From Bacillota bacterium (GTDB lineage Bacteria > Bacillota > Clostridia > Christensenellales > UBA1242), in NCBI GenBank assembly GCA_009784185.1, contig WRCD01000001.1:129698-193697 (forward strand): 64,000 bases of DNA, in the 5' to 3' direction. A model generated the notes under the pieces. It was not told where the DNA came from, searched no databases, and saw only the letters and a program-made list of their open reading frames with translations. A program made the position numbers and the translations under genes. How positions within the stretch are numbered: position 1 is the stretch's first letter; each line of letters starts with the position of its first letter. This document shows, one piece after another, positions 13,801-42,963 of the stretch.

Positions 13801-14486
13801 TAGAAATGACCGAGACATCGGGCCTTGGTTATGATATATTTAAGTACAGCACGCCGAACGGTGCCATAAGCAATGTTTTTAATGGTACTACCGGTGACAG
13901 ACTTGTATTGCAAGAAAGTATAAGGTGTATTTTAGGCTCTGAGGCATTAAGCAAACTGACCAGTTTGGCAAAATACCCCAGCAAAGATAAGGCCGACGGC
14001 AAAGACAGTGACACGGCAAGAGTCAGGATAGAATCGCATATCCGTGCCGGCACCGGCCAGTACTTTATAACCGCTGCGGTCGAAGACATTTGGCTTATCG
14101 GTTATCAGAGGCTGTATTTTACAAGGCTTGATTGGTTTAGCCAGAACGGTAACCTTGTTCCCTTTTTTGGATATGACCCGTTGTTTTGGTGCAACTTTTA
14201 TTGGGACCCTGTAATTGTGGGAAATCCTAACATGTCTGCTTGGGTTAGAATAGAGGCCAACATAACGACCGCTCAAAGTTCTGGAAAACTGTACTCAAGA
14301 GAATACAGAGAAACAAGTTCTTATACTTCTGTAAGCGGACTGAATCGTGGTGGTCTTCGCTTGCAGGAGTCTGCCTGGAGTGCGGGAGCTAACATGAGAA
14401 ACATGAAGCTGATATGGAGCCTTATTGACAACTCCGGCATTTACGGCAGTTATACAGGTGAAGAAAAGAAGACCACACACGGTTAA
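1878..14486 (+). CDS. Giant (4202 aa) N-terminally anchored surface protein built of FN3/Ig-like modules
   Basis: Single 12.6-kb ORF with a GAGGT SD about 6 nt upstream of the ATG. The N-terminus has a basic stretch plus a hydrophobic helix (WIYIVSAVAVVLAAAIVTLVITL). Dozens of ~90-110 aa modules follow, each with a W..V..A..Y.(V/L) signature (LIVSWSPVSGASCYELEL, LIITWDAVPGALSYNLVV, VLTWERVPGTRNGYYVML, EFSWRSIPGAIGYSIEM). No LPXTG-type C-terminal signal was seen. Confidence 0.85.
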   Translation: MSYSYGQKSGKKRTWIYIVSAVAVVLAAAIVTLVITLRPGNVPEPEYKLSAPSNLVVVVENGRHLVKFGAVTNAKSYDLLIDESRVTIYGSDLPLVEFDITNWMTDYKQYAISVKARAANSEFDSDYTTNIPHNNTTRLASPQLEVDLTGSVLMWNSVPRADMYKVTIDTVDFLTSRLVFDIAANLPAIAHLGIGSYDMKVAAHNSNSAFVLDSLPSNILKYVINTELSAPANLRIDDMGGSLIVSWSPVSGASCYELELLHGGTSTELGYTNDLAFDITSLVSNPLEYAVRVRAIGAPFVATSPFTEPVVYQKFVTHAAPAGLAAVKEGNQLIITWDAVPGALSYNLVVGTDLGFPFVSGDSISITATRAVVPLSSSDDGIYNIKVRVNAGPAFYNASEFCEPIRVDVNTQLDTPVGLAVGGAAGAEFLTWQHIPYATNGYLVRAYSGGSVVASATVKDNWAALGSLVSVSGEYRLTVQAIGYKFYAASAESASLLYVIKYVLPAPVLFKVEVKEVEAEEETDTSSEEEVINYREYLVWTKVGQPASQIYYSIWFSGLGVSGWVTDIDGKRVNIRQDSESFMRTDPVLGLVEVFIYDITDFLDAGNLPYVFRVKAFPEPGNNVELESVFSNEQAYGPITPFGTPDNVGVDSAFVLTWERVPGTRNGYYVMLNGKLINSDEGTTTHFVNSFNLINHLRPGENTVSVCAAGYGRFLQSPFSAPITVNYTVIKLAAVTDFNVSARIVGGTIRYQANFNSVRHATHYIIVVEDDEGNSIIVKRPVPLGLSLLISIEIPEDLIEKSGTTMFSIVAAYLHEHALPGSEDYTGWIINSNKFEYYYHDLAVLATPVPVISEDAFGRWWVSWGAIDRATGYAFSVSVQNAVSTPISLTLSGGTTAYELTDYFAANGGAKYQIVVRAIGNNLLIANSAAAMLIYDRKLQLATPDISVEVRNGRHEVVWEVVPYATVYNVRVYKDYAINGTSVTVVNQNTSFLGSPDNKVRLDIEPQLSAAFPGIYTVVVTAIGHKQIPDEAIGEYYYQASLEAELLYTYSPPLSSPNFRTVTSGETITVEIIAVQNAVSYEVYASRTGWNAGQLSLAELVESGTSLSYNISGWFYPSSTAFFGSPGEVYFGVRAIASPTIPSGSTVWYQDSLCPSSQIYVHYGKLDMVSNVEIIQLFNHPQSTDDYGIVFVSWQAPANSLDFEIKVTGSAAIDVPSNMITDLGGGRFGAYLNSGYFSKIPQQNSYTIEIRASDNLAAFYLASNWNRHDFTYCLQFETANVSFVGGSKVLEATQSLLEIVFERPNLAARSFAIHVTDRLNNIVLTPITFTPSAGLNPISYSLTNFSEITTKAGVYEVRVEVLGSGVWANSPLSTPVYCIRHEKLAATQDLFIVKVESAAELRFTPVANSETYTLEFFREDWPLETIVITRGECVPSGSRLVYSIPTNLVDVATSYKYTVKLYSNDVTASVTIPSEFTGILPNGYTYLAYLKSDAAETNYEADGALSPPAYLELVVIEGVRYLTWTQVWTQVTYPSSGLPVDSYRLAYVLRDANGIYFMPDGTVVPWEEDTYFDESVGDWVTRYYQRHNDYLLAELSAVLTSANVIVGQNGVYVDDGRVYYPLTDTLTTANLHLTYYYAIALLAEGNNEHGNSDVVLATLLPAPRDAPEIVLADPALSPDFYINKTGGTITLSFKNELSSQLGLYTEDGKPRWENIYSLSINGKEQWAINDDNASFNAVTSIITIDSVWLAEKLRGEYELVKDHHNFNRYFSIKLYAHAVNGVILTEVKEDPAPNYDIPNGSFEQIIYGNAVMYEERIIELNWLAPYLYDEPIIITSVEDDASNNYVINFSGDLRHATGFVIEVCDINGDPNSPATVLTIKIGTPGQSSYSLDFTSVLAGLSPMEYTVRLYVYSDTCKRVYGQRSSSDQPYYKSFRRYALENTVDVFSISGGLSNILSFDAPAGYTINNSFELEIGRNVGGQIKFGEEGRTFTLGGPGGIALSTSGGALTADLTGHLIELEGDYLYARIRMLSRGTYYKDSLWSAYAGFSHQIKLVISGLKVSITPDLPADLTSQEFNVKRLELTGFVRGADMFTIDIKPSSGTEWQSFTYFMYAGAIDVSGVILQPGEYDVRFTALNNGEYYLGGNTETVKIEVWFMHAEPTNVTHTVKYAMGATQAEDEYNPTSVIVNFGNAIINKTYNIRLLDPLSLTELHISGIIYGVGGFEIIDILNQLPPRSYIISVSAPASGYFLESKQVFSSSGSGVYKHQYRMPQAEEAALTHIMEYDAPEPYTGFVRAHGYIYFTHSSQLPGHGLPFDAFNGESYVPVYAGYNVWVRDNKGNSANYNCFVGKNESGFFIKSGADGFTINPLTGEIRFDISVFAYSTGRINNPYISGYYYYTITTLVPGEFTSNMDVRASPPLYQDYSMGGRMFNFLIKYPYRPEELTLMNGETIGKNTWLYWTLAGPEAAAGNVRFVVSINGKEHLINLIGAPTSAPGIYSYSLFSIDGLIMDYLRGGDNRIRVAVEAMPDKHFSRGDWSDEIPVNGYQVVLPAPNVNWGSNNVVSWNNQLNSNWDNIDTVWYEVIVAYDTDSTAEKNGSGYEDIHTWTMPRSPNPEMSFNLYDMLWGTDYLNGLSLKNGAYRLTIKIISSNSAYTPSEAAVWRQFKDPFAMPADVAVVVTVNGSTLLADDKEAYTSNETETKINVSWLRVEMEMSDSTKVYPKKYMIQVFLSVGTNSEIIKGEYEICLDTNDERLTYDSVTNKYTYDIWADFKNQRGGGDYVVYVIAIGESSDLFSSSPRSNKTPAAQFKHYVKLPVPQLPATLSLDFTGEGWSISWNAYEADGVLGYELSVVEINGFALEEHKIRITTTSNRHFASSNNTSGGNFYLDQGAWNTVRLRAIGNPDFYVNSDYSQVVYYNLPKAFPPRDFAVLTNQPGRVEVNETTVRAQTAEVTLTWSFLNQNDAEHYMLLVMDESGISHCNTLYFCVDRESLRRNIYLCNSEGKRIDFAGTLGGNALLGSLDGDLTGSFVINIPAWVLFGDYEQSTGPGRYKILLSGYNPNLQELGVYGPSPFQFIYRIRLDSPVVEIVTNLGPGLDYITAQQVHERSFEFTVNVSNMSHNAKSFTLTLEVYNNNNGWVPLPNGATTIVEIKRGEEDGKCSVVISKESYSGLFDQLMLYAPATFRVVVQAKAEDTLYTDSYQRTESQQINRQMVAPTFELLIDDIFERSNLKSGEIDDKNRLTNLNTNGTACDLYVKDDNEGRQGSEYDAIGQYQLVGRLNGVGSWSDIGDPILGGNFKNPAANEGTYTIAGLGSIYQMLRTWLWEKHSQTGGGIVELALIAVPDALSGWKNSPMPEGDLNAKTQTIAFYVRSGVVDTVSVDDLRADIDYSNTGPNMKHTTYDAYIPTTIRLNWNVHESNSTNYRVTVAPFNRKDKTPNMPWGESGFSMPQAGVKTIGGLGGTGLQSNQNIASGFNNNFNYSNFDVYHGGVGYNASKEAGGVGWWEVYVEAIKPNDGGEFMGAGYPSEAYQFRIMLKLRSTQIDDPNKQGLSISAGAVNGVVPGQNYIFDETKRVNINSLTSPSVYYLVKAHDLQTINPDTAKRMGPLLKVDRFRVETNVGTNGSIGVSSLFADDVEGGSYGYSVTALDPSGGIVFFDSNPVAVAAGHEYAYNHVARINYTNRTTGGVIYNYNTGEQAYGNNNGIYNSVIAEVKTVLTTTPPNNRLDITYNNHPFATHYATYYVQAIGETSSAWVRATQLEGSSAAPGQSTAIPTDRPANFTRNFNFAPAFFGVNVDKNINDTSANIANYLAGWVSSNTFGGYLQPGEGMFVVVAWNALKSNEVFIDKRHANFITYNYNFEDKQNTSTGQNTSFTVGHNAYSSSSSHCEYMSMSPKNYWVTPANLSFAPSNALPQLEPKLYIEAVKFNVRNFTQADLNAPNLQTKRGNGQAGGNAGKITEFSWRSIPGAIGYSIEMTETSGLGYDIFKYSTPNGAISNVFNGTTGDRLVLQESIRCILGSEALSKLTSLAKYPSKDKADGKDSDTARVRIESHIRAGTGQYFITAAVEDIWLIGYQRLYFTRLDWFSQNGNLVPFFGYDPLFWCNFYWDPVIVGNPNMSAWVRIEANITTAQSSGKLYSREYRETSSYTSVSGLNRGGLRLQESAWSAGANMRNMKLIWSLIDNSGIYGSYTGEEKKTTHG

Positions 14487-17503: not shown

Positions 17504-17510
17504 ACTAAAA

Positions 17511-17554
17511 CCACCCCGCCACTATGTGGCACCCCTCCAGGGAGGGGAATTTTT
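17511..17554. repeat. GGGGAATT-family nested-hairpin repeat, single unit
   Basis: CCACCCCGCC-[GCCAC-tat-GTGGC]-A-[CCCCTCC-ag-GGAGGGG]-AATTTTT. Confidence 0.85.
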
Positions 17555-17604
17555 ACCTTATTATTCTATTGTTATTTACTCTGCAAATATGCTATACTTA
17601 ACAT

Positions 17605-19327: not shown

Positions 19328-19481
19328 TAATTTGTGATGCTACGGCGCTGGCTTCGCTGCTCTGCAGCTGCAGAGGCGCTCTCCGCAATCACAAATTACT
19401 AAACTTGGCGGATTGTAAAGCTACGGCGCTGGCTTCGCCACTAAAGTGGCTGCAGAGGCGCTCTTAGCACTTACAATCCGC
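19326..19481. repeat. Two tandem ~75-nt long hairpins with conserved cores and covarying outer stems
   Basis: Unit 1 (19326-19400) has the stem AGTAATTTGTGAT/ATCACAAATTACT. Unit 2 (19408-19481) has the stem GGCGGATTGTAAA/CTTACAATCCGCC. Both enclose the identical core flanks GCTACGGCGCTGGCTTCGC and CTGCAGAGGCGCTCT. Confidence 0.8.
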
Positions 19482-19508: not shown

Positions 19509-21083
19509 ATGTATTTAGCATTATACCGTAAATACCGGCCGGAGGTCTTTGAGGATTTAATCGGGCAGGAGCATATTACAAAAACGCTGGTTAATCAAAT
19601 AGCCATGGGTCAGGTCGGGCACGCCTATTTGTTTTGCGGAAGCCGCGGTACCGGCAAAACTACGGCAGCAAAGGTGTTTAGCAGGGCAATTAACTGCCAG
19701 AGCCCAAAATCGGGCAGCCCTTGCGGCAAATGTGCGGCGTGCAAAGCTTTAAGTGACCCGAGCAACATGGACATTATTGAGATTGACGCTGCCAGCAACA
19801 ACAGGGTAGACGAGGTGCGGGATATCCGCGAAAAGGCTAAATATCCTCCGGTGTCCGGAAAGTACAAGGTGTATATTATAGACGAAGTGCATATGCTTAC
19901 CGAAAGCGCTTTTAATGCTTTGCTTAAAACGCTGGAAGAGCCTCCAAAGCATGCTGTGTTTATTTTGGCAACAACCGAAGCACATAAGCTGCCGTCCACA
20001 ATTTTAAGCAGAGTGCTCAGGTTTGATTTTAAGCTGCTGGCGCGCACAGATATTGAAAAGCTGCTTAAAAAAGTGTTTAAGTCTGCGGGCATAACCTGTG
20101 ACGAGGCGGCGCTTAGTGCAATAGCTGTTGCTGGCGAAGGCTCGGTACGGGATGCGCTGTCTGTAGCCGATATGGTGGCCGCCTATAGCAACAACAACAT
20201 TACTTACAATGCCGTGCTGGAGGTGCTTGGCTCAGGCGACAAAAACACGATAATTGATATCAGCCGTGCAATTTTAGGCGGGAATGTAGCCGGCTTTGTA
20301 GACTTAGTTAATGTTTATAATTCCGCAGGCAGAAATCTGCAGGCACTGGTTAAGGACCTGACGGCACATTTTTATCAGCTGATTATGATAAAAACCTTGC
20401 CGGAAGCTAACAAAACATTGCTGCTGCCTAAAGAGGTTTTTGTGGAAATGCAGAAAGATTGTGCAGCGGATGCGGCATTGCTTAATGAGTGTATGCAGAC
20501 ATTTAATAAAGCCGGGCTGGAACTGAAGTTTGCGCCGGACCCGCTGCTTTGTTTAACTGCCGCAGGGCTGGGAATTATGCTTGGCGGCGATAAAAAAAAA
20601 CGGGTGATTGATAATTCCCCTCTTGAGAGGGGTGTCGGCAAAGCCGACGGGGTGTGTTTAAACAAAGTTTCTGCGCCGCCTTTGGCGGCGACTACCCCGT
20701 CTGCTTCGCTTTGCTCGCATCCACCCCTTCGCGAGCAAAGGGGAATTGGTTTGGCGGAGGCCAATGGTGACGCTCGCAAGATTTGGGGGCAGGTGTTGCA
20801 GGAGCTGGACAAAAAGCAATGTATGCTGCTTTACCCCATTTGCGGAAAGATTAGTAACGTGTATATAAACGGCAATAATTTTGTTGTTGCAGCAGGAAGC
20901 GCTGCCGAGCAGAAACTGCTAAAAAAAGAGCAAAACTACAACGATTTGGTAGCAGCTTTTGCCGGAATCGGATATAATTACAATATCGTGATTGAAGTTG
21001 GGCTAAATATAAAGACTCAAACCAAAAACACCGAAGACATATTAAAAGAAAAGTTAGGCGATATATTAAAAATAAAGGAGTAA
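19509..21083 (+). CDS. dnaX: DNA polymerase III subunit gamma/tau
   Basis: Start is MYLALYRKYRPEVFEDLIGQEH, with an AAGGAGGA SD. Walker A GSRGTGKTT, zinc module CGKCAAC, DEVHML and SRV motifs are present. The ORF-track start at 19446 is an unsupported extension. Confidence 0.92.
   Translation: MYLALYRKYRPEVFEDLIGQEHITKTLVNQIAMGQVGHAYLFCGSRGTGKTTAAKVFSRAINCQSPKSGSPCGKCAACKALSDPSNMDIIEIDAASNNRVDEVRDIREKAKYPPVSGKYKVYIIDEVHMLTESAFNALLKTLEEPPKHAVFILATTEAHKLPSTILSRVLRFDFKLLARTDIEKLLKKVFKSAGITCDEAALSAIAVAGEGSVRDALSVADMVAAYSNNNITYNAVLEVLGSGDKNTIIDISRAILGGNVAGFVDLVNVYNSAGRNLQALVKDLTAHFYQLIMIKTLPEANKTLLLPKEVFVEMQKDCAADAALLNECMQTFNKAGLELKFAPDPLLCLTAAGLGIMLGGDKKKRVIDNSPLERGVGKADGVCLNKVSAPPLAATTPSASLCSHPPLREQRGIGLAEANGDARKIWGQVLQELDKKQCMLLYPICGKISNVYINGNNFVVAAGSAAEQKLLKKEQNYNDLVAAFAGIGYNYNIVIEVGLNIKTQTKNTEDILKEKLGDILKIKE
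20613..20747. repeat. GGGGAATT-family repeat, inverted pair, embedded in-frame in dnaX
   Basis: AATTCCCCTCttgaGAGGGGT-GTCGGCaaaGCCGAC-GGGGTGTG ... CCCCGTC...CCACCCCTTcgcgagcaAAGGGGAATT. The architecture matches the intergenic copies. Confidence 0.8.
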
Positions 21084-21087
21084 ACTT

Positions 21088-21402
21088 ATGTTTAACGGAG
21101 CAAATATGCAGCAATTAATGAAGCAGGCAAGAGCAATGCAGGAGCAGATGGAGCGCGACAAGCAGGAGCTGGAAGAGAGTGAGGTTACCGGTACCGCAGG
21201 CGGCGGGGCGGTTTCTGTAAAGATAAACGGCAGAAGAGAGGCCCTTGAGGTTAAAATTAAGCCCGAGGTGGTGTCGGGTGACGATGTTGAAATGCTTGAG
21301 GATTTGGTTATGGCTGCGGTTAATGATGCAAATGCGCAGATTGATGAAATTGCCGAGAGACTATCGCCAAAGCTTCCCGGCGGAATGAATATACCGTTTT
21401 AA
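21088..21402 (+). CDS. ybaB: YbaB/EbfC family nucleoid-associated protein
   Basis: 104 aa with MQQLMKQARAMQEQM...GGGAVSVKINGRREALEVKI, in the conserved dnaX-ybaB-recR order. Confidence 0.9.
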   Translation: MFNGANMQQLMKQARAMQEQMERDKQELEESEVTGTAGGGAVSVKINGRREALEVKIKPEVVSGDDVEMLEDLVMAAVNDANAQIDEIAERLSPKLPGGMNIPF

Positions 21403-21410
21403 GGCAGGAC

Positions 21411-22004
21411 ATGAAAAACTTTGTTGAGCCGATTGAGCGGCTGATAAATGAATTTAGCAAGCTTCCCGGTGTTGGAACCAAAACGGCGGGGCGGTTTGCG
21501 TATAGTATTATTAACCGCACGGATACGGAGGTGCGGGAGTTTGCTAAAGCGCTTACAGACGCCAAAACCAAGGTTAGGTATTGCAATATCTGCGGCAATT
21601 TTACAGATAAAGAAACCTGCAGCGTCTGTGTTGCCAGAGACCATAGTATTATATGTGTTGTGGCAGAACCCAAAGATGTGCTGGCACTTGAAAAGGTGCG
21701 CAGCTACAACGGCAGTTATCATGTGCTTCATGGCGTGCTTAGTCCGCTAGACGGCAAGGGCGCAGATGACATAAGGCTTAAAGAATTGCTGGCAAGGCTA
21801 AACGGCGGCAAAACGCAAGAGATTGTGCTGGCAACGCCTACTAATGTAGAAGGCGAAGCAACCGCAATGTATATAGCAAAGCTTATTAAGCCGCTGGGGA
21901 TAAAGGTAACCAGAATTGCCCAGGGTATATCCTTAGGCACCGAGCTGGAATACGCCGACGAGGTTACGCTGACCAGAGCGCTGAGCGATAGGAGAGAGAT
22001 TTAG
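21411..22004 (+). CDS. recR: Recombination protein RecR
   Basis: LPGVGTKTAGRFAY HhH motif, a C4 zinc finger (CNICGN...CSVC) and a Toprim region (VVAEPKDVLALE). Confidence 0.92.
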   Translation: MKNFVEPIERLINEFSKLPGVGTKTAGRFAYSIINRTDTEVREFAKALTDAKTKVRYCNICGNFTDKETCSVCVARDHSIICVVAEPKDVLALEKVRSYNGSYHVLHGVLSPLDGKGADDIRLKELLARLNGGKTQEIVLATPTNVEGEATAMYIAKLIKPLGIKVTRIAQGISLGTELEYADEVTLTRALSDRREI

Positions 22005-22060
22005 TAAGATTCCCCTTTTTTGTTGCCCAAAACTTTTTTGAAAAACTTTTGATTTTGGTA

Positions 22061-22091
22061 TTGACAAATGCGTAGGGGGGGGGGCTATAAT
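22061..22091 (+). promoter_or_regulatory. Sigma-70-type promoter with a G10 tract in a 19-bp spacer
   Basis: TTGACA (22061-22066), 19 bp containing G10 (22075-22084), then TATAAT (22086-22091). An AAAGGAGA SD and the ATG at 22122 follow. Confidence 0.7.
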
Positions 22092-22121
22092 AGACACATA
22101 GACCAAAAGGAGAAACAAAAT

Positions 22122-22745
22122 ATGATTAAAGAATTGATTTTTATAATTGACACTTCTAGTGATTCGGGGAGCAGGGCTAGAGAAGTAATGACGGCGGAAA
22201 CGGTTAATGTGGCTATGAGCATGGTCTGTAAAGACTTAGCTGATTTTTCAGGCTCAGTTCATCCGGAGGTGGAGCCGCGGCTTTCTATTTACCACAGTGT
22301 GTGGGATATGGAGCCACTGAGAAGCAAGGTCAACAATTGTCCATGGGCGGCGGCACCTGAGGCTGCCGAGAGAAATAAGTTTAACAAAGCGAAAATTAAT
22401 TTTGTAGGAAATCCAATGCTTGACGGTGCAATATTGGCGCTTGCAGAAAAACTTGAGGAAAAAGCAAACGCAGGCGGTTACGATTCAGGCATATGCGCGC
22501 CCGAAATTTTTGTGCTTGCCGGTGAGGCAGTAAACATGGATATGTTTTTTAGAACTGTTGAAAAGGCTGCGGAAAGAAGCCGCTTGATTAAACACTCAAG
22601 GGTTAGCGCAGTTTATATAGGCAACGATGCAGGTGCTCTGTATAAACAGATAGGCACAGGCACTAAGAAATGGAAAGACAAGTGGGCAGGAAAGGCAACA
22701 GCAATTGAGCCGCAAGGCGGCGCCGGAACCATGGACAAGAAATAA
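22122..22745 (+). CDS. Hypothetical protein, vWA/TerY-like fold with a degenerate MIDAS (tentative)
   Basis: The SD sits 8 nt upstream. LIFIIDTSSDSGS ... PRLSIYHSVWD ... GNPMLDGAILALAEKL ... PEIFVLAGEAVNMD ... VSAVYIGNDAG follows the vWA beta-alpha-beta order, but the metal-binding residues are replaced. Confidence 0.45.
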   Translation: MIKELIFIIDTSSDSGSRAREVMTAETVNVAMSMVCKDLADFSGSVHPEVEPRLSIYHSVWDMEPLRSKVNNCPWAAAPEAAERNKFNKAKINFVGNPMLDGAILALAEKLEEKANAGGYDSGICAPEIFVLAGEAVNMDMFFRTVEKAAERSRLIKHSRVSAVYIGNDAGALYKQIGTGTKKWKDKWAGKATAIEPQGGAGTMDKK

Positions 22746-22753
22746 TTTTTAAA

Positions 22754-22797
22754 CCGCCCCGGCGCTATGCGCCACCCCTCCAAGGAGGGGAATTTTT
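22754..22797. repeat. GGGGAATT-family repeat, single unit (terminator-like)
   Basis: CCGCCCC-[GGCGC-tat-GCGCC]-A-[CCCCTCC-aa-GGAGGGG]-AATTTTT, directly after the stop at 22745. Confidence 0.85.
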
Positions 22798-22858
22798 ATT
22801 TTACACATATTTTTTGCATAAAGCATATACATTGTTAAGTTTTGTTACAGGAGTGCAA

Positions 22859-23386
22859 GTGTTGGAGAGTTACAACGACTTTTTGCTGTTAGACAATAAT
22901 ACATATTCTCAAATGGAGCGGGCATATGCGCAGAGCATAGCTCCGCAAAGCGTAGTTCCGCCAATTGTTTCAAAAGTGGTCCCGGTTATTGCCTGGGAGG
23001 CGCTGCGCCTTATTTTTTATGGGCTGAAGCACACGCATTTTAATTTAAATCAGTTAACCAGGTTTGCGGGCCGCGGCACCACCAAAGAAAAGATTTTATT
23101 AAATGTGATTAAAATTGAACGGCAGCTTGCTATGCTCCATAGGTTGTATCACCAAAAAACCGGCACGGAATGCGTGTTTAATTTTATTGCTCCAAAGCAG
23201 GCACCAAATAATTGCACTGCATTACGGGCGGCAATAGATACTCAACTGGACGTGTTTAAAACCATGTTTGAGCTATACAAAAACGAAACAAACGCTGAAT
23301 CTAAAGCTATGCTGGAATCCGGCATAACCGAAGCGCATGAAGTGCTGAAAAATTTAACCAGTATGGTTTGTGCGGTAAGGTATTAA
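22859..23386 (+). CDS. Hypothetical protein (helical, no recognised domain)
   Basis: GTG start with a GGAG SD 6 nt upstream; the ORF-track TTG at 22814 has no SD. No motif was recognised. Confidence 0.5.
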   Translation: MLESYNDFLLLDNNTYSQMERAYAQSIAPQSVVPPIVSKVVPVIAWEALRLIFYGLKHTHFNLNQLTRFAGRGTTKEKILLNVIKIERQLAMLHRLYHQKTGTECVFNFIAPKQAPNNCTALRAAIDTQLDVFKTMFELYKNETNAESKAMLESGITEAHEVLKNLTSMVCAVRY

Positions 23387-23402
23387 GGTTGTTGTCGTCG
23401 CT

Positions 23403-23528
23403 AAAATTCCCCTCTATAAGAGGGGTGGCAATCACGAAGTGATTGACGGGGTGTGGATAACGAAAAGTCTGTATGACAACCACACCCCGCCTCGCAGGCT
23501 CGGCACCCCTCTTATAGAGGGGAATTTT
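23403..23528. repeat. GGGGAATT-family repeat, complete inverted pair
   Basis: AAAATTCCCCTCTataAGAGGGGT-GCAATCACgaaGTGATTGAC-GGGGTGTGG ... CCACACCCC-GCCTCGcagGCTCGGC-ACCCCTCTtatAGAGGGGAATTTT. Confidence 0.9.
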
Positions 23529-23580
23529 ATATGGCAAATCATTAGGAGCAAAACTTTTTTAAAAACTTTTGATTTTAGTA

Positions 23581-23611
23581 TTGACAAGTTCGGGGGGGGG
23601 GGCGCTATAAT
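23581..23611 (+). promoter_or_regulatory. Sigma-70-type promoter with a G11 tract in a 19-bp spacer (duplicate of the 22061 module)
   Basis: TTGACA (23581-23586), 19 bp containing G11 (23592-23602), then TATAAT (23606-23611). About 40 bp upstream and the 5'UTR are near-identical to the 22028-22124 module. Confidence 0.7.
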
Positions 23612-23641
23612 GGATGTATAAACCAAAAGGAGAAAAATAAA

Positions 23642-24214
23642 ATGAATATAGAACAAAGAGCGGACAGAATTATTGAAACCAGCAATAAGTATGTTGTAAG
23701 GCCTTCTGACCCGGATAGTTTTGGCAAGTTTAGTATCACAGATAAAAAAACCGGAGTTGATATGTCTGCAAAACTGGACAAGGACAGCAAGCGAGAGATA
23801 GTTTATAATGATATGATTAGAAACTTGTGCAGCGTAAAGAAATATTCTACAGATGGAACTCAAGATAGTTATGACAAAATTATGCTAGAAAATATGTTGC
23901 CTAATTTTGACGTATTGGCTGCAATGATTAACAAAGATTTAGGCAATGGCTCAATAGACACACAACCCATATTTAAGTATTTTGACGAGTGTAAATTTAA
24001 ATACACAGATGAATTAATACGAGGAATGTTCACTTCATCAATCTCGTATGGGCCGGAAAGGTTTTTGATTTTTGCAAATTACCATAACAATAATCCGGAC
24101 ATAAAACGAGTTTCAGATGCAAGTTGTAAAGGTCCGTCCGGCATTATACCCAACCCAACCAGAGTGAATTTTAAGGTGGAGAGAGCGCCTGCGGCCAAAG
24201 TTAAACTTCCTTAA
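23642..24214 (+). CDS. Hypothetical protein
   Basis: An AAAGGAGA SD precedes the ATG. 190 aa, no recognised motif. Confidence 0.55.
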   Translation: MNIEQRADRIIETSNKYVVRPSDPDSFGKFSITDKKTGVDMSAKLDKDSKREIVYNDMIRNLCSVKKYSTDGTQDSYDKIMLENMLPNFDVLAAMINKDLGNGSIDTQPIFKYFDECKFKYTDELIRGMFTSSISYGPERFLIFANYHNNNPDIKRVSDASCKGPSGIIPNPTRVNFKVERAPAAKVKLP

Positions 24215-24216
24215 AC

Positions 24217-24259
24217 CACCCCGCCCTTCGGGCACCCCTCCAAGGAGGGGAATTTTTTT
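24217..24259. repeat. GGGGAATT-family repeat, single unit (terminator-like)
   Basis: CCACCCC-[GCCC-ttc-GGGC]-A-[CCCCTCC-aa-GGAGGGG]-AATTTTTTT, immediately after the stop at 24214. Confidence 0.85.
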
Positions 24260-24296
24260 GAGTTCTATCCAGGGGGTTGCCAGCAATGATAACTGG

Positions 24297-25195: not shown

Positions 25196-25242
25196 AATTC
25201 CCCTCTATAAGAGGGGTGCCGAGTTTACGAGGCGGGGTGTGG
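25196..25242. repeat. GGGGAATT-family repeat, single unit (opposite orientation)
   Basis: AATTCCCCTCTataAGAGGGGT-GCCGAGtttaCGAGGC-GGGGTGTGG, between divergent genes. Confidence 0.85.
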
Positions 25243-28058: not shown

Positions 28059-29405
28059 TTGTACTTTAAAGGTTACGCTTTTTTGTTTAGTTTAGTTGTG
28101 CTCGTATTGTTTACGGGTTTTTCAGGCTTTAGTTCGGTTGGGGCAAGCAACGAGCCGCATGAGGATTTTGTTTTAAGATACGACGGCAAAAAGCATATAT
28201 ACGATGTAGCTAAAAACGAGCCCAAGAGCAGCATCCATACCATTGAGCACCGGTATCAGAGGTTTGGCAAAAAAGGAACTCCTGCCGAGCGTGCGGAACT
28301 GCTGGGGAGGGTAATGGAACTGGGATTCGGCTATGAAGAGGCATTTAAATATGTATTTAAAAACTTTGATGTATTTGTTGCGGGGGTAATTAAAGGCGTT
28401 AGCCGCCCAAGCAAGGACTCTAAGATTTCTTTCTATCCCAACAGGAGCGATATGTTTGATATATCCCGGGAGCAGGTTGGTTTTGTGGTAAACAAGGAGC
28501 AGCTTTACAAAAAAATGTACATAGAATACTGTAAGACCGGCAAAATTGATATAGAAATTATTCCGCAAGTATTGGAGCCGCGGTACACATATGACGAGCT
28601 GAGTGCGGTAGACAACCTAAAGGCAAAGTTTGGCACATATTACGGAAGCAGCGGAGCGGACAGGCGGCACAACATTAACCTGGCTCTCAGGCAGCTTAAC
28701 GGTATGCGGATAGAGCCGAATGAAGAATACTCATTTAACAAAATCACCGGCAGACGGACAGAAGCCAACGGATACAGAAAAGCAAATATAATTATCAACG
28801 ACGAATATGTAGAAGGGTACGGCGGCGGGGTTTGCCAGGTGAGCACTACCCTATATAACGCATTGCTTCTTTCAGGCGCAGATATAACCGAGGTAAGGCG
28901 GCATTCGTTGCCCAGCAGTTATGTAGCGCTTGGGTTTGATGCAATGGTATCTCACGGCACAAGTGACCTTAAGTTTATAAACCGCAGCAGCCTGCCTATG
29001 TTTATAAAAGCATACAGCACTCAAAACAATATCTACATTGAAGTATACGGCGCTTCAAGCGAACCTGATTTTAAAATTAAACGCATTACCGAGATAATAA
29101 GAAAAATATCTCCTGCGCCGAGTAAAACCATTATTGATACAGCCGGAGAACATTCTGGCCTTGTAAACTATACAGACGAAACAGCAGTGCTGCATTACGC
29201 AAAGGACGGATATGAGGTAAACGCGTATCTGGAGTATTACATTGGCAGTACAATGGTAGGCAGAAAATTAATCCGGCATGAAACATACAAGCCGCAGCAA
29301 GGAGTGTACGTGCGCGGGGCTAAGAAGCGTCCTTTGCCACCACTGGAATCGGAGCCGCTAACTCAAATAATTCCCCTCTTAGAAAGAGGGGTGGCAGGCG
29401 TTTAG
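28059..29405 (+). CDS. VanW family protein
   Basis: N-terminal signal/TM and the VanW core (EPNEEYSFNKITGRRT...GYGGGVCQVSTTLYNA). The last ~12 codons (IIPLLERGVAGV) are encoded by a repeat element. Confidence 0.85.
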   Translation: MYFKGYAFLFSLVVLVLFTGFSGFSSVGASNEPHEDFVLRYDGKKHIYDVAKNEPKSSIHTIEHRYQRFGKKGTPAERAELLGRVMELGFGYEEAFKYVFKNFDVFVAGVIKGVSRPSKDSKISFYPNRSDMFDISREQVGFVVNKEQLYKKMYIEYCKTGKIDIEIIPQVLEPRYTYDELSAVDNLKAKFGTYYGSSGADRRHNINLALRQLNGMRIEPNEEYSFNKITGRRTEANGYRKANIIINDEYVEGYGGGVCQVSTTLYNALLLSGADITEVRRHSLPSSYVALGFDAMVSHGTSDLKFINRSSLPMFIKAYSTQNNIYIEVYGASSEPDFKIKRITEIIRKISPAPSKTIIDTAGEHSGLVNYTDETAVLHYAKDGYEVNAYLEYYIGSTMVGRKLIRHETYKPQQGVYVRGAKKRPLPPLESEPLTQIIPLLERGVAGV

Positions 29406-29839: not shown

Positions 29840-29968
29840 AATTCCCCTCTATAAGAGGGGTGCCGAGCTTGCGAGGCGGGGTGTGGAAAACACTATAGCT
29901 AGTTTTATCTCCACACCCCGTCTGTCTGCGTTATCGCTTGACATCCACCCCTCTTGTAGAGGGGAATC
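29840..29968. repeat. GGGGAATT-family repeat, inverted pair
   Basis: AATTCCCCTCTataAGAGGGGT-GCCGAGcttgCGAGGC-GGGGTGTGG ... CCACACCCCGTC...CCACCCCTCTtgtAGAGGGGAATC. Confidence 0.85.
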
Positions 29969-29972
29969 TTTT

Positions 29973-30022
29973 GGAGCGAAAGCGACCCGTAGTTGTTACC
30001 TGTTACCTGTTCACTGTTCCCT
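29973..30022. repeat. Heptamer-arm repeat family, right half (core + 4 x 7 bp)
   Basis: GGAGCGAAAGCGACC-CGTAGTT-(GTTACCT)(GTTACCT)(GTTCACT)(GTTCCCT). Confidence 0.8.
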
Positions 30023-30293
30023 GAAACTTTGGGTGGCAGTTATATTCGTTTACCAGCACTTTAATTGTTTCGTCATTTGCGTCAGGCACCGTAATATAAT
30101 ACCAGCCTTTCTTTATTCCTTTAAATATTGCCTTGCCCTGGCGGTTGGATTTTAAAAAATAAACTTGTCCCGTCTGGTCGTCTTTCATATATACGGCCTT
30201 ACCGCAGGCGGGGCATCCGCTTTTATGTTTGAGGTTTATTCTAATGCAATACGGAATGTTGTTTTTATCCCGTCCTGGTTGGGGATAGCTCAT
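30003..30293 (-). CDS. Small hypothetical protein with a possible beta-sandwich (Cna-B/carboxypeptidase-regulatory-like) segment
   Basis: 96 aa. QGKAIFKGIKKGWYYITVPDAN resembles the G.Y.V motif of such domains. There is no strong SD, and the C-terminal codons are supplied by the heptamer repeat. Confidence 0.45.
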   Translation of the reverse strand: MSYPQPGRDKNNIPYCIRINLKHKSGCPACGKAVYMKDDQTGQVYFLKSNRQGKAIFKGIKKGWYYITVPDANDETIKVLVNEYNCHPKFQGTVNR

Positions 30294-31653: not shown

Positions 31654-31684
31654 GGGAACAGGGAGCAGGGAACAGGTAACAACG
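31654..31684. repeat. Heptamer-arm repeat family, left arm only (4 x 7 bp)
   Basis: (GGGAACA)(GGGAGCA)(GGGAACA)(GGTAACA)ACG. This is the reverse complement of the arm at 29995-30022. Confidence 0.75.
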
Positions 31685-32038: not shown

Positions 32039-32653
32039 ATGATAAGCAGAGCGTTTACAAACGAACAGGCCAGACAACACATATGCTATAGCATAACCTG
32101 TGGCTTTGAGTTTGAAAAGTTTATATGCGGTAAAGGCCTGTACGGCAACCGGGTATCCCTTATGCGCAACAAAGACCCGTCCGCAGTTTATAAGCAGCAG
32201 GCTGAATTTAAGACCAGTGTTTTTCATGCAATAGAAGGACTGAAGCCGTTGGAGTACGGGGCCACAATTACTTTTGCCAGAAACAAGATAGAAGCAATAA
32301 TAAGAGACAAGGAAAGCATGCGTGATTATTTTAAAAATAATTCCGGCGGCTTTGTTACGGCAAATGATTTGGAATCCACACTTAATGCATGGTATACCAA
32401 GGTGTCGCGCAAGCTGATTACAAACAGCTATTCGGATTTTAAGGCGCTGGATGATTTTGTAATAAATGCAATTATGTTGATTCTGCCAATATCCGAACAG
32501 GAGCTGATAGGAACATTCAGGGCTAAACAATTAAACCGGCTGGTTAAGGAAGGGGTGCTTGAAAAAGGCTATGCCGATGAGAGGATACAAGCGCTGCCGG
32601 GAGAGCTTGACAAGCTGATAGCGCTAAAGCAGAAACTACTGAGCAAAAAATAA
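32039..32653 (+). CDS. Hypothetical protein
   Basis: GGAGGAG SD, starting 27 nt after the HicB-like gene. 204 aa, no recognised motif. Preferred over the Cys-rich antisense ORF 32003..32530. Confidence 0.55.
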   Translation: MISRAFTNEQARQHICYSITCGFEFEKFICGKGLYGNRVSLMRNKDPSAVYKQQAEFKTSVFHAIEGLKPLEYGATITFARNKIEAIIRDKESMRDYFKNNSGGFVTANDLESTLNAWYTKVSRKLITNSYSDFKALDDFVINAIMLILPISEQELIGTFRAKQLNRLVKEGVLEKGYADERIQALPGELDKLIALKQKLLSKK

Positions 32654-32654
32654 A

Positions 32655-32761
32655 AATTCCCCTCTAGAGAGGGGTGGCACGGAGTGCCTGGGTGTGTTAT
32701 GTGTGCTTTTCACATACCCCGCCTCGCAAGCTCGGCACCCACAATATCCTAAAGGGGAATA
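32655..32761. repeat. GGGGAATT-family repeat, inverted pair (right half degenerate)
   Basis: AATTCCCCTCTagAGAGGGGT-GGCACGGagTGCCTGG-GTGTGTT ... CACATACCCC-GCCTCGcaaGCTCGGC-ACCC...AAAGGGGAAT. Confidence 0.8.
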
Positions 32762-40714: not shown

Positions 40715-40745
40715 TTGACTTTTTGGCAGGGGGGGGGGGTATACT
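40715..40745 (+). promoter_or_regulatory. Sigma-70-type promoter with a G11 tract in a 19-bp spacer
   Basis: TTGACT (40715-40720), 19 bp containing G11 (40729-40739), then TATACT (40740-40745). The methyltransferase start lies 18-24 nt downstream. Confidence 0.65.
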
Positions 40746-40762
40746 GGTTAGAAGATTGGAGA

Positions 40763-41851
40763 ATGTTTGTGGAAAAACAAAGGAAAGTGGTAACGAAAAT
40801 CAAATATGAAAGTGGCAAGGTTACTCCTCTTGGCACAGAGCCAAATGATGAATGCTATACTGCAATGCAGGATATTGTAAACGAGTTAGCACAATATGGA
40901 CATGATGGCCGGTTTAGGGGCAAGGACATTATATGTCCGTGTGATTGGGATATTTTAGAAGATGAGGAAGTCTACTCACTTCGTGTTGATTTTGACGAAG
41001 ACATCCATGCGCACACTAACGATGTTAAACTAATTAGTTATGAGAAGCAAAATGGTGCGTTACATAATGTCAGAGTTGAGAAAGAGGAAATAGACAAGTT
41101 TTTAAGAGAAAGAACCAGGTGTAACTTTCTACGAACCCTGATTGAGAACGCAAACACATGGGGAATAAAAAGTGTGTCTGTAAGTGGCTATAATCCGGCA
41201 ACAGGAAAAGGTAAAAAGTTTCAGGATGTTGATTATTCACAATATGATATTTGTATCACCAATCCGCCATTTTCGCGGTATGCCGAATTTATTGAAACCT
41301 TAGTAAAAACTGAAATTGACTTCATAATTCTTGCTCCATTCCTAAACAGGGTAAATCCTTGTGTTGGTATTCCATTATTACTAAAACAATGCTACCTTGG
41401 ATACGGAAGAAAATTAAGAATGAATTTTTTCAACCCCACGATTGACAATGAATACAACACAAAACTAGTTGCTTGTGATTGGATAACAACATTCTATGAC
41501 GCACAGGAGGCGGTAGACAAATCAAGATTGTTAAACGGTATCAAGTACGAGGACTATGAAGACGAGTATATGGTAATGGAAAACATGACAATGAAGGATG
41601 GCACTCATCCAATAAGAGTGAACAACTTTAGAGCAATTCCGGACGACTACTATGGATGGATGTTCTGCTCCATAGGAGTGCTTGATATATTGAGCAACGA
41701 AGAATTTGAATGGTACGGCACAGGGTTCAAGGGCTATTTAAATACAAACAGGCACATCAGTCCGTTTGAGCACAGAGCTTCAAATGAAATGGTGTCAAAT
41801 GCAAACACCAAAGGGTTTCACGGTGTAGTGATAAGACGAAGGAGAATATGA
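40763..41851 (+). CDS. N6-adenine DNA methyltransferase, EcoRI-methylase-like family
   Basis: NDECYTAMQDIVNEL...FRGKDIICPCDWD and DICITNPPFSRYAEFIETLVK...DFIILAP. NPPF is motif IV of amino-methyltransferases, and the layout matches my recollection of the PF13651 family. The start is ATG 40763 or GTG 40769 (GGAG at 40758). Confidence 0.65.
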   Translation: MFVEKQRKVVTKIKYESGKVTPLGTEPNDECYTAMQDIVNELAQYGHDGRFRGKDIICPCDWDILEDEEVYSLRVDFDEDIHAHTNDVKLISYEKQNGALHNVRVEKEEIDKFLRERTRCNFLRTLIENANTWGIKSVSVSGYNPATGKGKKFQDVDYSQYDICITNPPFSRYAEFIETLVKTEIDFIILAPFLNRVNPCVGIPLLLKQCYLGYGRKLRMNFFNPTIDNEYNTKLVACDWITTFYDAQEAVDKSRLLNGIKYEDYEDEYMVMENMTMKDGTHPIRVNNFRAIPDDYYGWMFCSIGVLDILSNEEFEWYGTGFKGYLNTNRHISPFEHRASNEMVSNANTKGFHGVVIRRRRI

Positions 41852-42963
41852 AAATGAAGCTAACGGTAAAGGCAATAATTGAAATGCTTGAAAGCGGCAA
41901 ATTGCAAACTGAGCAAACAACGCAAAGGCAATTCATTTATAACTCTATAACTAAAAAATTAGAAGATGGAGAAATTACAAAGGCCGGCAATGTTTTAAAA
42001 TCAATATTGCAGTATAAAATTCAATTGCCTGCACTATATTTTTGGGAGCGAGACGGCAAGTATAATGTTCATGATGGCAAGCAAAGAATTTTAAGCATCC
42101 GTTATTTTGTTAAGCCGACAAGAGAGATTAATGTTATAACAAGAATAAATGGCAGAGAAGCCAGCTATATAAGTCTGTCGGAAGAACAAAGGAAGGAGCT
42201 GCTAGAGTATGAGTTTGATATCGTTGTTGCGGCCGGCGAACAGGAGAAAGAAGAAACAACGTTTGATTTGATAAACACGAACGCTGTGCCACTAACAGAA
42301 TACGAAAGTTTGCGCGGTATGTTTTACGGCACATTTTTATACGAGTTTGAGCAATATATAGAATCCAAATCTAAAGTTGTTGATGCTGTAAAAGGTGTAG
42401 GCAGAGGCGAGCAGGCAAAACTGTTCTTGTATAACTGTTTTGAGTTGTTGGGGGAAAAAGTAGCAGACAGGAAAATTAGGACACTGCTGAGACATGTTAG
42501 AAATTCATCGTTTGATGCAAAGACATACAAGATGGAAGAAACAATAGCAGTGTTTAGTGAAGTGTCAAAAATATTAGGTGTTAGTGACGAGAAGGCACTG
42601 GGCGTTGCTGCCTTTATAGTTGGAAAGGGATACGACAAGGACATGGTCTGTGATTATTTTAGGCGAATAGTACGCAAAAAAAATGACGTAAAAAGCTGGG
42701 ATGTATATGAGCACTTTAGGGTTGCCATAAACAATTTAATAAACAACAATATTGAGTGCGACGGCAAAAGGAAATTTGCATCGGAAGATAAAGATGTTTT
42801 ATATGGAAGGTCGCAAAAATGTGCGGGCTTAAACTGTAAAGAAACAAATTACAAAAAGCTGGAAGTTGACCACATAAAGAAATGGAGTGAAGGTGGCCCA
42901 ACGGTGCTGGACAATGCTAGACTTCTCTGCAAGTCGTGCAATGCAAGTGAAAAATATAATTAA
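41848..42963 (+). CDS. DUF262 (ParB-like NTPase, DGQQR motif) fused to a C-terminal HNH nuclease
   Basis: TTQRQF...LPALYFWERDGKYNVHDGKQRILSIRYF...TFDLINTNAVPLTEYE is the DUF262 pattern. The C-terminus CAGLNC...LEVDHIKKWSEGGPTVLDNARLLCKSCN is a Cys4 HNH. The ATG overlaps the methyltransferase TGA (ATGA). Confidence 0.7.
   Translation: MKMKLTVKAIIEMLESGKLQTEQTTQRQFIYNSITKKLEDGEITKAGNVLKSILQYKIQLPALYFWERDGKYNVHDGKQRILSIRYFVKPTREINVITRINGREASYISLSEEQRKELLEYEFDIVVAAGEQEKEETTFDLINTNAVPLTEYESLRGMFYGTFLYEFEQYIESKSKVVDAVKGVGRGEQAKLFLYNCFELLGEKVADRKIRTLLRHVRNSSFDAKTYKMEETIAVFSEVSKILGVSDEKALGVAAFIVGKGYDKDMVCDYFRRIVRKKNDVKSWDVYEHFRVAINNLINNNIECDGKRKFASEDKDVLYGRSQKCAGLNCKETNYKKLEVDHIKKWSEGGPTVLDNARLLCKSCNASEKYN

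Follow-up and report, generated by a model that had tools for sequence, protein, structure and literature searches.

Poly-G tracts between the -35 and -10 boxes have been described in N. meningitidis porA and in T. pallidum tp0126, and for both promoters an optimum at a 17-bp spacer was established experimentally (PMC7864442; for porA, as summarised there). Among the T. pallidum poly-G tracts of at least 8 residues that were tested, 76% vary in length (PMC7864442). The locus studied here resembles porA in having a homopolymer of about 9-11 G in a sigma-70-type spacer, and in porA the length of this homopolymer sets transcription (as summarised in PMC7864442). However, porA comes from a Gram-negative pathogen and encodes a surface porin, whereas our promoters belong to an uncultured Bacillota, i.e. 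a different phylum, and precede genes for cytoplasmic orphan proteins and a restriction-modification operon. Furthermore, two of our promoters (modules 1 and 2) combine perfect hexamers with an UP-like block, their spacers as assembled are 17+2 rather than 17 bp long, and the switch is in our case a proposed one. As for tp0126 and the tpr genes of T. pallidum, they share with our locus the poly-G within the spacer and the occurrence of several such promoters per genome, and most of their tracts of at least 8 G vary within isolates (PMC7864442). On the other hand, these are outer-membrane protein genes of a spirochaete, whose genome has 52.8% G+C and in which poly-G is common, while the DNA analysed here has 45% G+C and is otherwise devoid of G/C runs longer than 6.

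Simple repeats in promoter spacers also occur in Mycoplasma hyorhinis vlp and related Mollicutes (poly-A or TA) and in H. influenzae hifA/hifB (TA). Systems of the vlp type are generally known as gene families with a common promoter cassette and a spacer repeat, much like the duplicated module described below. The vlp and hif repeats nevertheless consist of A or TA, and their cargo comprises paralogous surface lipoproteins or fimbriae; in our case the repeat is G and the two genes are mutually unrelated.

Three promoters with poly-G spacers

The promoters lie in a 64-kb window (the whole stretch of DNA that was analysed). Their features and genes are as follows:

22028..22060, + strand: A/T-tract block of module 1 (CAAAACTTTTTTGAAAAACTTTTGATTTTGGTA), read directly; putative UP-element-like function
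22061..22091, + strand: core promoter of module 1, TTGACA (22061-22066), 19-bp spacer, TATAAT (22086-22091); 12/12 consensus match
22075..22084, + strand: G10 homopolymer in the module 1 spacer, proposed as the hypermutable element; a spacer of 17 bp would require G8
22122..22745, + strand: gene p207 (207 aa), orphan, predicted to be driven by module 1; gene call in the ENA contig
22775..22799, + strand: terminator-like hairpin with T run closing the p207 unit (sequence)
23506..23530, + strand: terminator-like hairpin, which makes up the right-hand arm of a palindrome of REP type (23402-23529), predicted to insulate module 2 from upstream transcription
23549..23580, + strand: A/T-tract block upstream of the module 2 promoter (sequence)
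23581..23611, + strand: core promoter of module 2, TTGACA (23581-23586), 19-bp spacer, TATAAT (23606-23611); 12/12 hexamer match
23592..23602, + strand: G11 homopolymer in the module 2 spacer; 17 bp would require G9
23642..24214, + strand: gene p190 (190 aa), orphan, predicted to be driven by module 2; low G+C (34-36%)
40715..40745, + strand: third promoter, TTGACT (40715-40720), 19-bp spacer, TATACT (40740-40745); 10/12 hexamer match
40729..40739, + strand: G11 homopolymer of the third promoter, directly adjoining the -10 hexamer; with G9 the spacer would measure 17 bp
40769..41851, + strand: EcoRI-family N6-adenine DNA methyltransferase (360 aa, GTG start); Pfam PF13651 (1e-19), PADLOC MTase_II
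41848..42963, + strand: GmrSD_N/DUF262-like and HNH nuclease (371 aa), its start overlapping the methylase stop

The spacers read aatgcgta + G10 + c (22067-22085), agttc + G11 + cgc (23587-23605) and ttttggca + G11 (40721-40739), so that non-tract and tract lengths of 9+10, 8+11 and 8+11 amount to 19 bp at all three promoters. Each promoter is followed by a GGAG motif (22109-22112, 23629-23632 and 40758-40761) and a start codon (ATG 22122, ATG 23642 and GTG 40769), and the boxes are separated from these RBS-preceded starts by 30, 30 and 23 nt, respectively. Transcription is predicted to begin near 22098, 23618 and 40752, some 7 nt past the TATAAT/TATACT boxes. With their consensus or near-consensus hexamers, these are putative sigma-A (sigma-70-type) promoters whose sole defect is the length of the spacer, set by the G10-11 tract. 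A preliminary description of this DNA had placed G tracts in the 19-bp spacers of consensus promoters, and every coordinate was confirmed; it had also pointed to a third G11 promoter at 40715, which was found with its -35 box and tract at the positions given above.

Apart from the tracts G10, G11 and G11, no G/C run in the window reaches a length of 7, and each of these tracts is located within a promoter spacer. There were no C runs of 6 or more and no further G runs longer than 6 in these 64 kb, and no G/C runs of 7 or more appeared in an additional 17 kb of flank from the same contig (about 81 kb in total). The distribution of repeats is thus non-random, with G runs of at least 7 confined to these promoters, one of which precedes the restriction-modification operon. 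Matches to G9 numbered 8, compared to 0.38 expected from shuffles, and 8 or more were reached in none of 100 shuffles; the pattern is thus not due to chance. The preliminary description had inferred a genome-wide strategy rather than chance. For a genome-wide strategy the support is weak: about 81 kb contained three tracts, of which two belong to neighbouring paralogous modules, and the additional flank contributed none. As for ordinary spacing, a perfect promoter with a 17-bp spacer (TTGACA-17-TATAAT, at 59688) precedes the rpsL-rpsG-fusA genes in the same window, where further plausible promoters between genes have spacers of 17-18 bp. Judged from these predicted promoters, the organism uses canonical promoter spacing.

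Modules 1 and 2 (22028-22124 and 23549-23644) had been called near-identical; the figure is 82/97 positions, i.e. 85% identity. The part from CAAAAC to TTGACA differs at two places only, by an indel of 1 nt and by a G/A exchange. The similarity is confined to promoter, UTR and RBS and drops to background level directly outside, and the genes behind the two modules are unrelated to each other (BLASTP E = 0.07). From this duplication in front of two unrelated genes, it can be deduced that the promoter travels as a cassette. Each module's transcription unit is bracketed by terminators, with that downstream of p190 at 24235-24250. Rfam gave nothing relevant in or near the modules. Scanning metagenomes with the module core (CTTTTGATTTTRGTATTGACA) retrieved three unrelated chance matches only, and the same scan of viral contigs retrieved none.

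Neither p207 nor p190 has a signal peptide, and both remained without a match in Pfam and PADLOC. Searches with p207 covered 5.8e9 clusters and, by HMMER, 1.84e9 representatives and found only the self-match, and homolog searches with p190 likewise returned the self-match only. The predicted structures are of low confidence (pLDDT 39 for p207 and 48.5 for p190).

The source contigs represent one strain: the ENA contig (assembly ERZ27257304), from a short-read MEGAHIT metagenome, does not differ from the Logan contigs, which belong to run SRR10512951. Exact-protein look-ups with p207, p190, p175, YbaB, EF-G and a 4202-aa protein led only to these, i.e. the source ENA contig and the Logan contigs of one run. 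Logan contig L126 also carries G10 at module 1 and ends 3 nt past the tract. We considered this break as a sign of length heterogeneity and set it aside, since it lies 3 nt past the tract and not at the expected branch point, and read error following a homopolymer explains it equally well.

Similar promoters in other genomes

Species-representative genomes were surveyed with the pattern TTGACA-N3-10-G9-N0-5-TATAAT, which yielded at least 119 loci with at least 122 promoters. By our own estimate, assuming uniform composition, about 13 matches would be expected by chance in the whole collection. Among the matches listed, most loci come from uncultured gut Clostridia and Bacilli: 44 of 80 titled loci are Clostridia by name, and many others are Bacilli or Selenomonadaceae. 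The matches listed also include Treponema MAGs, gut spirochaetes, Saccharibacteria and Leptotrichiaceae, as well as one cultured isolate, Streptobacillus notomytis AHL 370-1. In the preliminary description, poly-G spacers were not known as a common device in Clostridia-like Bacillota; with at least 119 loci, they are common there at the sequence level. When the window was compared with the 119 loci listed (blastn and tblastn), no close relative of the source genome was present among them.

The tracts stand out in their surroundings: further G/C runs of at least 8 numbered just 12 in the 817 kb around the listed promoters. Phased A/T tracts similar to the blocks of modules 1 and 2 precede many of the listed promoters. 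Signal-peptide-like N-termini were present in 53 of 80 downstream proteins; among control ORFs the share was 124 of 789, which gives an odds ratio of 10.5 (P = 4e-21; matches listed). Contingency loci typically carry exported proteins as cargo.

Spacers of the at least 122 promoters range from 14 to 23 bp; lengths of 18-19 bp are the most frequent, and few spacers measure 17. Their variance is lower than expected from independent assortment, and L0 correlates negatively with tract length (P = 0.004, matches listed). Among the matches listed, 78 of 122 promoters have their tract directly beside the -10 box, and it is always the sense strand that carries the G. In viral contigs, G9 was found at 9 loci and C9 at 3; a search of viral contigs for additional members of a pilin-promoter family (L032, L133 and L139) offered nothing new. 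Tract length differs in 4 of 8 related promoter pairs among the matches listed. One such pair is L047 with G9 and L092 with G10, which share an identical non-tract spacer (ATGGCACTCC) and a similarity of 0.9 in the 40 nt upstream; the comparison covers the upstream side only, as both loci end shortly past the promoter.

Proposed switching by spacer length and its alternatives

We propose that the tracts act as a slipped-strand, spacer-length phase-variable or rheostat switch of the porA/tp0126 kind, which would control the two orphan genes and the EcoRI-like methylase/HNH operon (probability roughly 0.65). The preliminary description had read them in this way; its anatomy, i.e. tracts in 19-bp spacers of consensus promoters, was right, and the switch is kept as the probable, best explanation. 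All three tracts are longer than the approximately 8 units from which repeats become hypermutable in length, and in each promoter sequence the repeat is flanked by the -35 and -10 boxes. Slipped-strand mispairing during replication would add or remove Gs, as might be expected from what is established for tracts of at least 8 G. Each such change would shift the distance and phasing between the boxes, and hence the strength of the promoter. Because all three spacers are two bp over the 17-bp optimum, the majority state as assembled is predicted to be low or OFF, and loss of one or two Gs would raise expression stepwise. With such stepwise states, the population would hold subpopulations differing in expression of p207, p190 and the methylase-HNH operon, which in the case of the operon might serve for bet-hedging of phage defence and DNA uptake.

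Some observations count against a switch. The cargo of modules 1 and 2 consists of cytoplasmic orphan proteins and not of surface antigens, and the methylase homologs closest to ours, P0004 (75% identity) and P0011 (73%), have ordinary promoters with no upstream G tract. Moreover, a spacer of about 19 bp could be a selected and stable configuration, given the uniform 19 bp here and the constraint on spacers of the class (P = 0.004). The G tract would then be fixed, with a stiff G:C-rich spacer attenuating or tuning the promoter, or moving its optimum to about 19 bp, while length is held by selection and its variation is negligible or irrelevant. Such a design would account for exactly 19 bp being reached at all three promoters despite unequal tract and flank lengths, and for the mode of 18-19 bp with few spacers at 17 among the matches listed. 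The frequent abutment of the -10 box and the constant sense-strand G in the matches listed likewise suggest that the tract does more than set the length, with a role in structure or contacts. However, tracts of G10-11 are intrinsically unstable wherever tested (PMC7864442), and the experimentally studied G-tract spacers of porA and tp0126 peak at 17 bp, not 19 (PMC7864442). A fixed length would require continuous selection, although a mixed-sequence spacer would serve equally well and stably, and it would have to be reconciled with a genome that otherwise avoids G/C runs over 6 and with related promoters that are one G apart within an identical non-tract spacer. On balance, we regard a fixed tract as unlikely.

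Other explanations appear far less probable still. Promoters of the MerR family are characterised by good hexamers set 19 bp apart, and a MerR-like activator or another DNA-distorting factor might realign the boxes over 19 bp, the G tract being its binding or bending site. The third promoter is, in addition, divergent from a P-type ATPase gene. Nevertheless, the likeness to MerR-family promoters (19-20 bp) is limited to spacer length: the spacers have no dyad symmetry, there are no inverted repeats in or around them that could form a dyad operator, and the neighbouring genes (recR, DAG kinase and P-type ATPase) include no MerR-family or other HTH gene, and transcription from the G-tract promoter would run away from the ATPase. 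As spacers of the class also range over 14-23 bp among the matches listed, a MerR-type promoter was rejected as very improbable. Even less weight can be given to a sequencing or assembly artefact, such as poly-G from two-colour chemistry or a homopolymer miscall. The source is indeed a short-read MEGAHIT contig, and the break 3 nt past G10 in the Logan contig of the same strain indicates a tract that is hard to sequence or assemble. However, there are three unique loci with unique flanks, each tract sits precisely within a promoter spacer, and both assemblers gave the same G10, even if the called length is possibly off by plus or minus 1. Furthermore, more than 100 genomes, which stem from many studies and assemblers, show this architecture, and so does the S. 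notomytis isolate. It is similarly hard to credit that a secondary structure of the G strand (a two-tetrad quadruplex or an R-loop) modulates promoter melting regardless of spacer length. G is consistently on the non-template strand, and G9 exceeds C9 in viral contigs, but a single run of G10-11 folds poorly into a quadruplex, the transcribed region begins only downstream of the tract, and no data require such a structure; the strand bias can be explained otherwise, e.g. by G at -14/-15 beside the -10 box. An invertible promoter was rejected too, as the surroundings of the three promoters contain neither convincing inverted repeats nor a neighbouring recombinase.

Returning to the spacer-length switch, this type of switch is already known, and its occurrence in this lineage is previously unreported in the literature searched, from which a published description of the poly-G spacer device in Clostridia-like Bacillota is apparently missing. 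The present locus, together with more than 100 similar promoters from gut MAGs, suggests that homopolymer-spacer switches might be common in uncultured commensal or symbiotic Bacillota. More tentatively, and at somewhat less than even odds, poly-G-gated sigma-A promoters would form a widespread contingency-locus system in uncultured host-associated Bacillota, gating mainly the exported proteome, with populations mostly 1-2 bases off 17. The lineages concerned would be Christensenellales-like Clostridia, Bacilli and Selenomonadaceae, with the addition of Saccharibacteria, Leptotrichiaceae and gut spirochaetes; in the genome studied here, the system may gate the restriction-modification cassette and lineage-specific orphan genes. 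If so, the bimodal distribution of spacers with a dip at 17 would result from populations being mostly one or two bases off the optimum. Multi-locus SSR phase variation would then not be restricted to pathogens. Database bias is suggested in PMC11868660 as a possible cause of the pattern described there. If homopolymer-spacer switches are common in these organisms, a consensus MAG sequence would not reveal how surface proteins and defence systems are expressed, the tract lengths of MAGs would be informative on the state of the population, and assembly would break systematically at poly-G positions.

The methylase-HNH operon and its relatives

The methyltransferase behind the third promoter has a database copy, P0003 (360 aa, 100% identical). 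Its partner was assigned by matches to Pfam HNH (2.7e-10) and PADLOC REase_II (4.7e-11), and weakly to GmrSD_N, and the pair of methylase and HNH genes recurs in homologous loci. Exact-protein look-ups with the HNH gene product and both start variants of the methylase returned zero records. A PF13651 methylase directly downstream of a G11-spacer promoter represents, as far as its sequence goes, a phasevarion-type arrangement. The likeness to phase-variable restriction-modification systems thus consists in a methylase-nuclease operon behind a stochastic switch, which is here a proposed one. The difference is in the position of the variable element: in classical phasevarions the repeat is located within the mod or hsdS coding sequence, whereas here it is a homopolymer in the promoter spacer.

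To our knowledge, the documented switches of Clostridia are DNA inversions. Inversion was also observed for a relative of our operon, P0014, a methylase-HNH cassette of another species with 64% identity. This locus contains a 125-bp segment with perfect inverted repeats at its ends, adjoining a tyrosine recombinase; the segment has one orientation in 7 assemblies and is inverted in 3. P0014 therefore has what defines an invertible promoter, i.e. inverted repeats, a recombinase nearby and both orientations. The inverton of P0014 and the G-tract promoter described here may represent convergent control of the same type of cassette. If the spacer-length switch is real, the methylase-HNH cassette would be a clear case of convergent stochastic control over one defence module.

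G-tract promoters of the window and their genes

Re-reading of the sequence confirmed the G-tract promoters of the preliminary description. The G tracts lie between -35 and -10 in 19-bp spacers, and a third promoter, carrying G11, is present at 40715, with the hexamers TTGACT/TATACT. Non-tract and tract bases combine as 9+10, 8+11 and 8+11, giving exactly 19 bp in all three cases.

G-tract promoters of the window and the genes near them
Module 1: TTGACA 22061-22066; 19-bp spacer aatgcgta-G10-c; TATAAT 22086-22091; GGAG 22109-22112; ATG 22122
p207: 22122-22745; orphan gene driven by module 1
p175: 22859-23386; gene between p207 and p190
Module 2: TTGACA 23581-23586; 19-bp spacer agttc-G11-cgc; TATAAT 23606-23611; GGAG 23629-23632; ATG 23642
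p190: 23642-24214; orphan gene driven by module 2
Third promoter: TTGACT 40715-40720; 19-bp spacer ttttggca-G11; TATACT 40740-40745; GGAG 40758-40761; GTG 40769
Methylase gene: 40769-41851; behind the third promoter

G9 words occur eight times in the window, versus 0.38 expected from dinucleotide shuffles. Beyond the three tracts, no G run exceeds 6 and no C run reaches 6 in the 64-kb window, and runs of at least 7 are absent from a further 17 kb of the contig, reached via flanking genes. Modules 1 and 2 are indeed duplicated, but to call them near-identical was an overstatement, as they share 82 of 97 positions (85%). Their CAAAAC...TTGACA stretches differ by one indel and one substitution, and similarity drops to background immediately beyond the promoter-UTR-RBS block.

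Four 12/12 matches to TTGACA-N-TATAAT were found in the window. Two are modules 1 and 2, and the others, at 59688 ahead of rpsL-rpsG-fusA and at 62887 within fusA, have 17-bp spacers. Further plausible intergenic promoters (e.g. ahead of a tRNA at 45939, and at 57979) have spacers of 17-18 bp. From this spacing, the housekeeping sigma factor appears to use canonical geometry, so that 19 bp exceeds the 17-bp optimum by two, as had been proposed. With phased A/T tracts upstream, hexamers that are perfect and an RBS that is strong, the spacer is the sole weak point, as would befit an otherwise maximal promoter whose output is gated through a mutable spacer. Transcription is predicted to start near 22098, 23618 and 40752.

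Modules 1 and 2 lie just 3' of dnaX-ybaB-recR and 5' of a convergent DAG-kinase gene, p207, p175 and p190 being three successive genes between recR and the latter. Each module serves one gene ended by a hairpin terminator, and another terminator precedes module 2. The p207 and p190 proteins (NCBI: MAG 'Firmicutes bacterium', FWE53_00530 and FWE53_00540) are mutually unrelated and have no signal peptides, and their single-sequence AlphaFold models were uninformative. Neither these two nor p175 matched Pfam or PADLOC. Among 5.8 billion protein clusters p207 and p190 found nothing but themselves, as did p207 in a full HMMER search against 1.84 billion representatives. The p190 gene has a G+C content of 34-36%, versus a window mean of 45%. 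The p207-p175-p190 stretch may be an island specific to the lineage.

The window also contains a family of G+C-rich, REP-like palindromes (AATTCCCCTCTATAAGAGGGGTG...GACGGGGTGTG), mostly between genes, and several copies double as terminator hairpins. Copies lie at 17508-17560, 20611-20659 (within the dnaX ORF), 22751-22803, 23402-23529 (perfect 26-nt arms), 24211-24263, 25196-25242, 29367-29394, 29840-29886, 32653-32740 and 48839-48889.

G-tract promoters in other genomes

One genome per species of GTDB r232 (a 596-Gb collection) was scanned for TTGACA-N3-10-G9-N0-5-TATAAT. The matches listed comprise at least 119 loci with 122 promoters, while about 13 chance hits would be expected in the whole collection by a uniform-composition estimate; no close relative of the window genome was among these loci. 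Clostridia names were carried by 44 of the 80 titled loci listed, including Christensenellaceae, Borkfalkia, Gallimonas, Avimicrobium, Oscillospiraceae and Lachnospiraceae; Bacilli, Selenomonadaceae, Saccharibacteria, Treponema, Leptotrichiaceae and Chloroflexi were also listed. Nearly all listed sources are gut MAGs, with one cultured isolate, Streptobacillus notomytis.

The tract is always of sense-strand G, and it directly abuts TATAAT in 78/122 listed promoters. In the 817 kb of DNA around them, other G/C runs of at least 8 number only 12, of which three lie in imperfect promoter contexts with sense-strand G and none with sense-strand C. N-termini resembling signal peptides or lipoproteins were assigned to 53 of 80 downstream proteins (of at least 100 aa) versus 124 of 789 other ORFs of the same listed loci (odds ratio 10.5, P = 4e-21), by a crude heuristic identically applied to both sets. 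Several genomes carry paralogous pairs of promoter modules, like the window (L025, L080, L119, L013/L064), and among the listed loci four of eight related promoter pairs differ in tract length. Loci L047 (G9) and L092 (G10), for example, have an identical non-tract spacer and similar upstream flanks. Such properties are the marks of contingency loci.

Three loci (L032, L133, L139) share a G-tract promoter family, with G9 or G10, ahead of a gene whose product begins with MKKHKHYQGFTIIEV. This start resembles the leader of a type IV pilin or pseudopilin, and the gene may encode a phase-variable pilin of gut bacteria or their phages.

Spacer length and proposed promoter switching

In a slipped-strand mechanism, changes in G-tract length would alter spacer length and thereby act as a promoter switch or rheostat, with the assembled state two bases beyond the optimum and with the orphan genes p207 and p190 and the restriction-modification operon as targets. 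We consider this the most likely mechanism (probability about 0.65), and the phase-variation interpretation put forward earlier is partly supported. In N. meningitidis porA and in T. pallidum tp0126, as summarised in PMC7864442, a poly-G tract lies between -35 and -10 and expression is optimal at 17 bp; in T. pallidum, 76% of tested poly-G tracts of at least 8 were length-variable within isolates (PMC7864442). Judged by sequence, the window elements would agree with this kind in every visible feature. In the full-text literature searched, promoters of this type were not found described for Clostridia or gut MAGs, and the Clostridia examples in the retrieved part of a 2025 review were all C. 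difficile inversion switches. The uncultured, non-pathogenic Bacillota lineage adds to the interest, as does the wide spread of the class among gut MAGs.

The main rival, a fixed 18-19 bp design with a shifted optimum, seems rather improbable to us. Total spacer length in the listed class is less variable than under independent assortment (P = 0.004). However, tracts of G10-11 are inherently unstable, such a design would be better served by a spacer of mixed sequence, and the G-tract spacers that have been tested have their optimum at 17 bp. The 122 listed spacers are bimodal (15-16 and 18-20), only nine being 17 bp long; among listed promoters with a G9 tract, four have 17 bp, 12-13 each have 15 and 16, and 17 each have 18 and 19. 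This dip could mean that natural consensus states are mostly detuned or OFF, it could reflect ascertainment, the search covering tracts of at least G9 only, or it could stem from the fixed design with its shifted optimum. A MerR-like mechanism was rejected, there being no dyad and no regulator gene at the promoters, and so was an inverton (invertible promoter), as flanking inverted repeats and a recombinase are absent from them.

The tracts are unlikely to be artefacts, since they lie at three unique loci, two assemblers give the same G10, and the architecture recurs in over 100 genomes. The window is identical to ENA metagenome contig ERZ27257304 k141_1238365 (207 kb, MEGAHIT). Exact-protein look-ups with six window genes returned, besides the source contig, nothing but Logan contigs of run SRR10512951, and neither JGI metagenome contigs nor viral contigs yielded the module core. 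The Logan contigs are base-identical to the source contig across 23 kb and 1.37 kb. One is 24 kb long; another (L126, SRR10512951_569495) corresponds to window 20718-22087, starting just past the REP-like repeat within dnaX and ending 3 nt past the G10 tract. The tract evidently breaks assembly, and short-read assemblies appear to break systematically at poly-G promoters. Since the break lies away from the point at which a length polymorphism would branch a k=31 graph, read error after the homopolymer accounts for it no less well than heterogeneity.

The methylase cassette and other features

The third promoter precedes a gene for an EcoRI-family N6-adenine methylase (PF13651, 1e-19), to which a DUF262-like/HNH nuclease gene (PADLOC REase_II) is translationally coupled on the 3' side. 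By sequence, the pair is a putative type II-like restriction-modification cassette. Homologs of the methylase number 339. Of those examined, the two closest, P0004 (75% identity) and P0011 (73%), have ordinary promoters with no G tract, so the G-tract promoter belongs to the locus of the window genome and not to the cassette. In another species, on at least 22 contigs, homolog P0014 (64% identity) likewise belongs to a methylase-HNH pair and is adjoined by a divergent tyrosine recombinase gene. Upstream, a 125-bp segment lies between perfect inverted repeats CTATTCTTATAATA / TATTATAAGAATAG (loci L150-L159, about 1290-1420); it has orientation A in seven assemblies and is inverted in three, the reverse complement being 99% identical. 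The minority orientation has an extended -10 box (TATGCTATAAT) that points toward the methylase. This locus looks like an inverton-controlled restriction-modification cassette. A homologous cassette under a well-recognised stochastic switch elsewhere would make the switch reading of the window G11 spacer more credible.

Other repeats were also observed in the window. Between a sigH-like gene and dnaX, an 81-nt-spaced direct repeat (19332-19394 / 19413-19476, about 86-92% identical) extends into the longest reading frame of dnaX at its 5' end and matched no Rfam family. GGTAACA/GTTACCT-like heptamers form short arrays at 29981-30026, 31654-31683, 49118-49163, 49823-49939 and 60782-60895, one of these sites being between rpsG and fusA. 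Finally, two neighbouring giant genes (window 35-14486 and upstream, L148 3469-9984) encode proteins of 2171 aa, with Big_2 domains, and 4202 aa, with no Pfam hit on record; both are probably cell-surface proteins.
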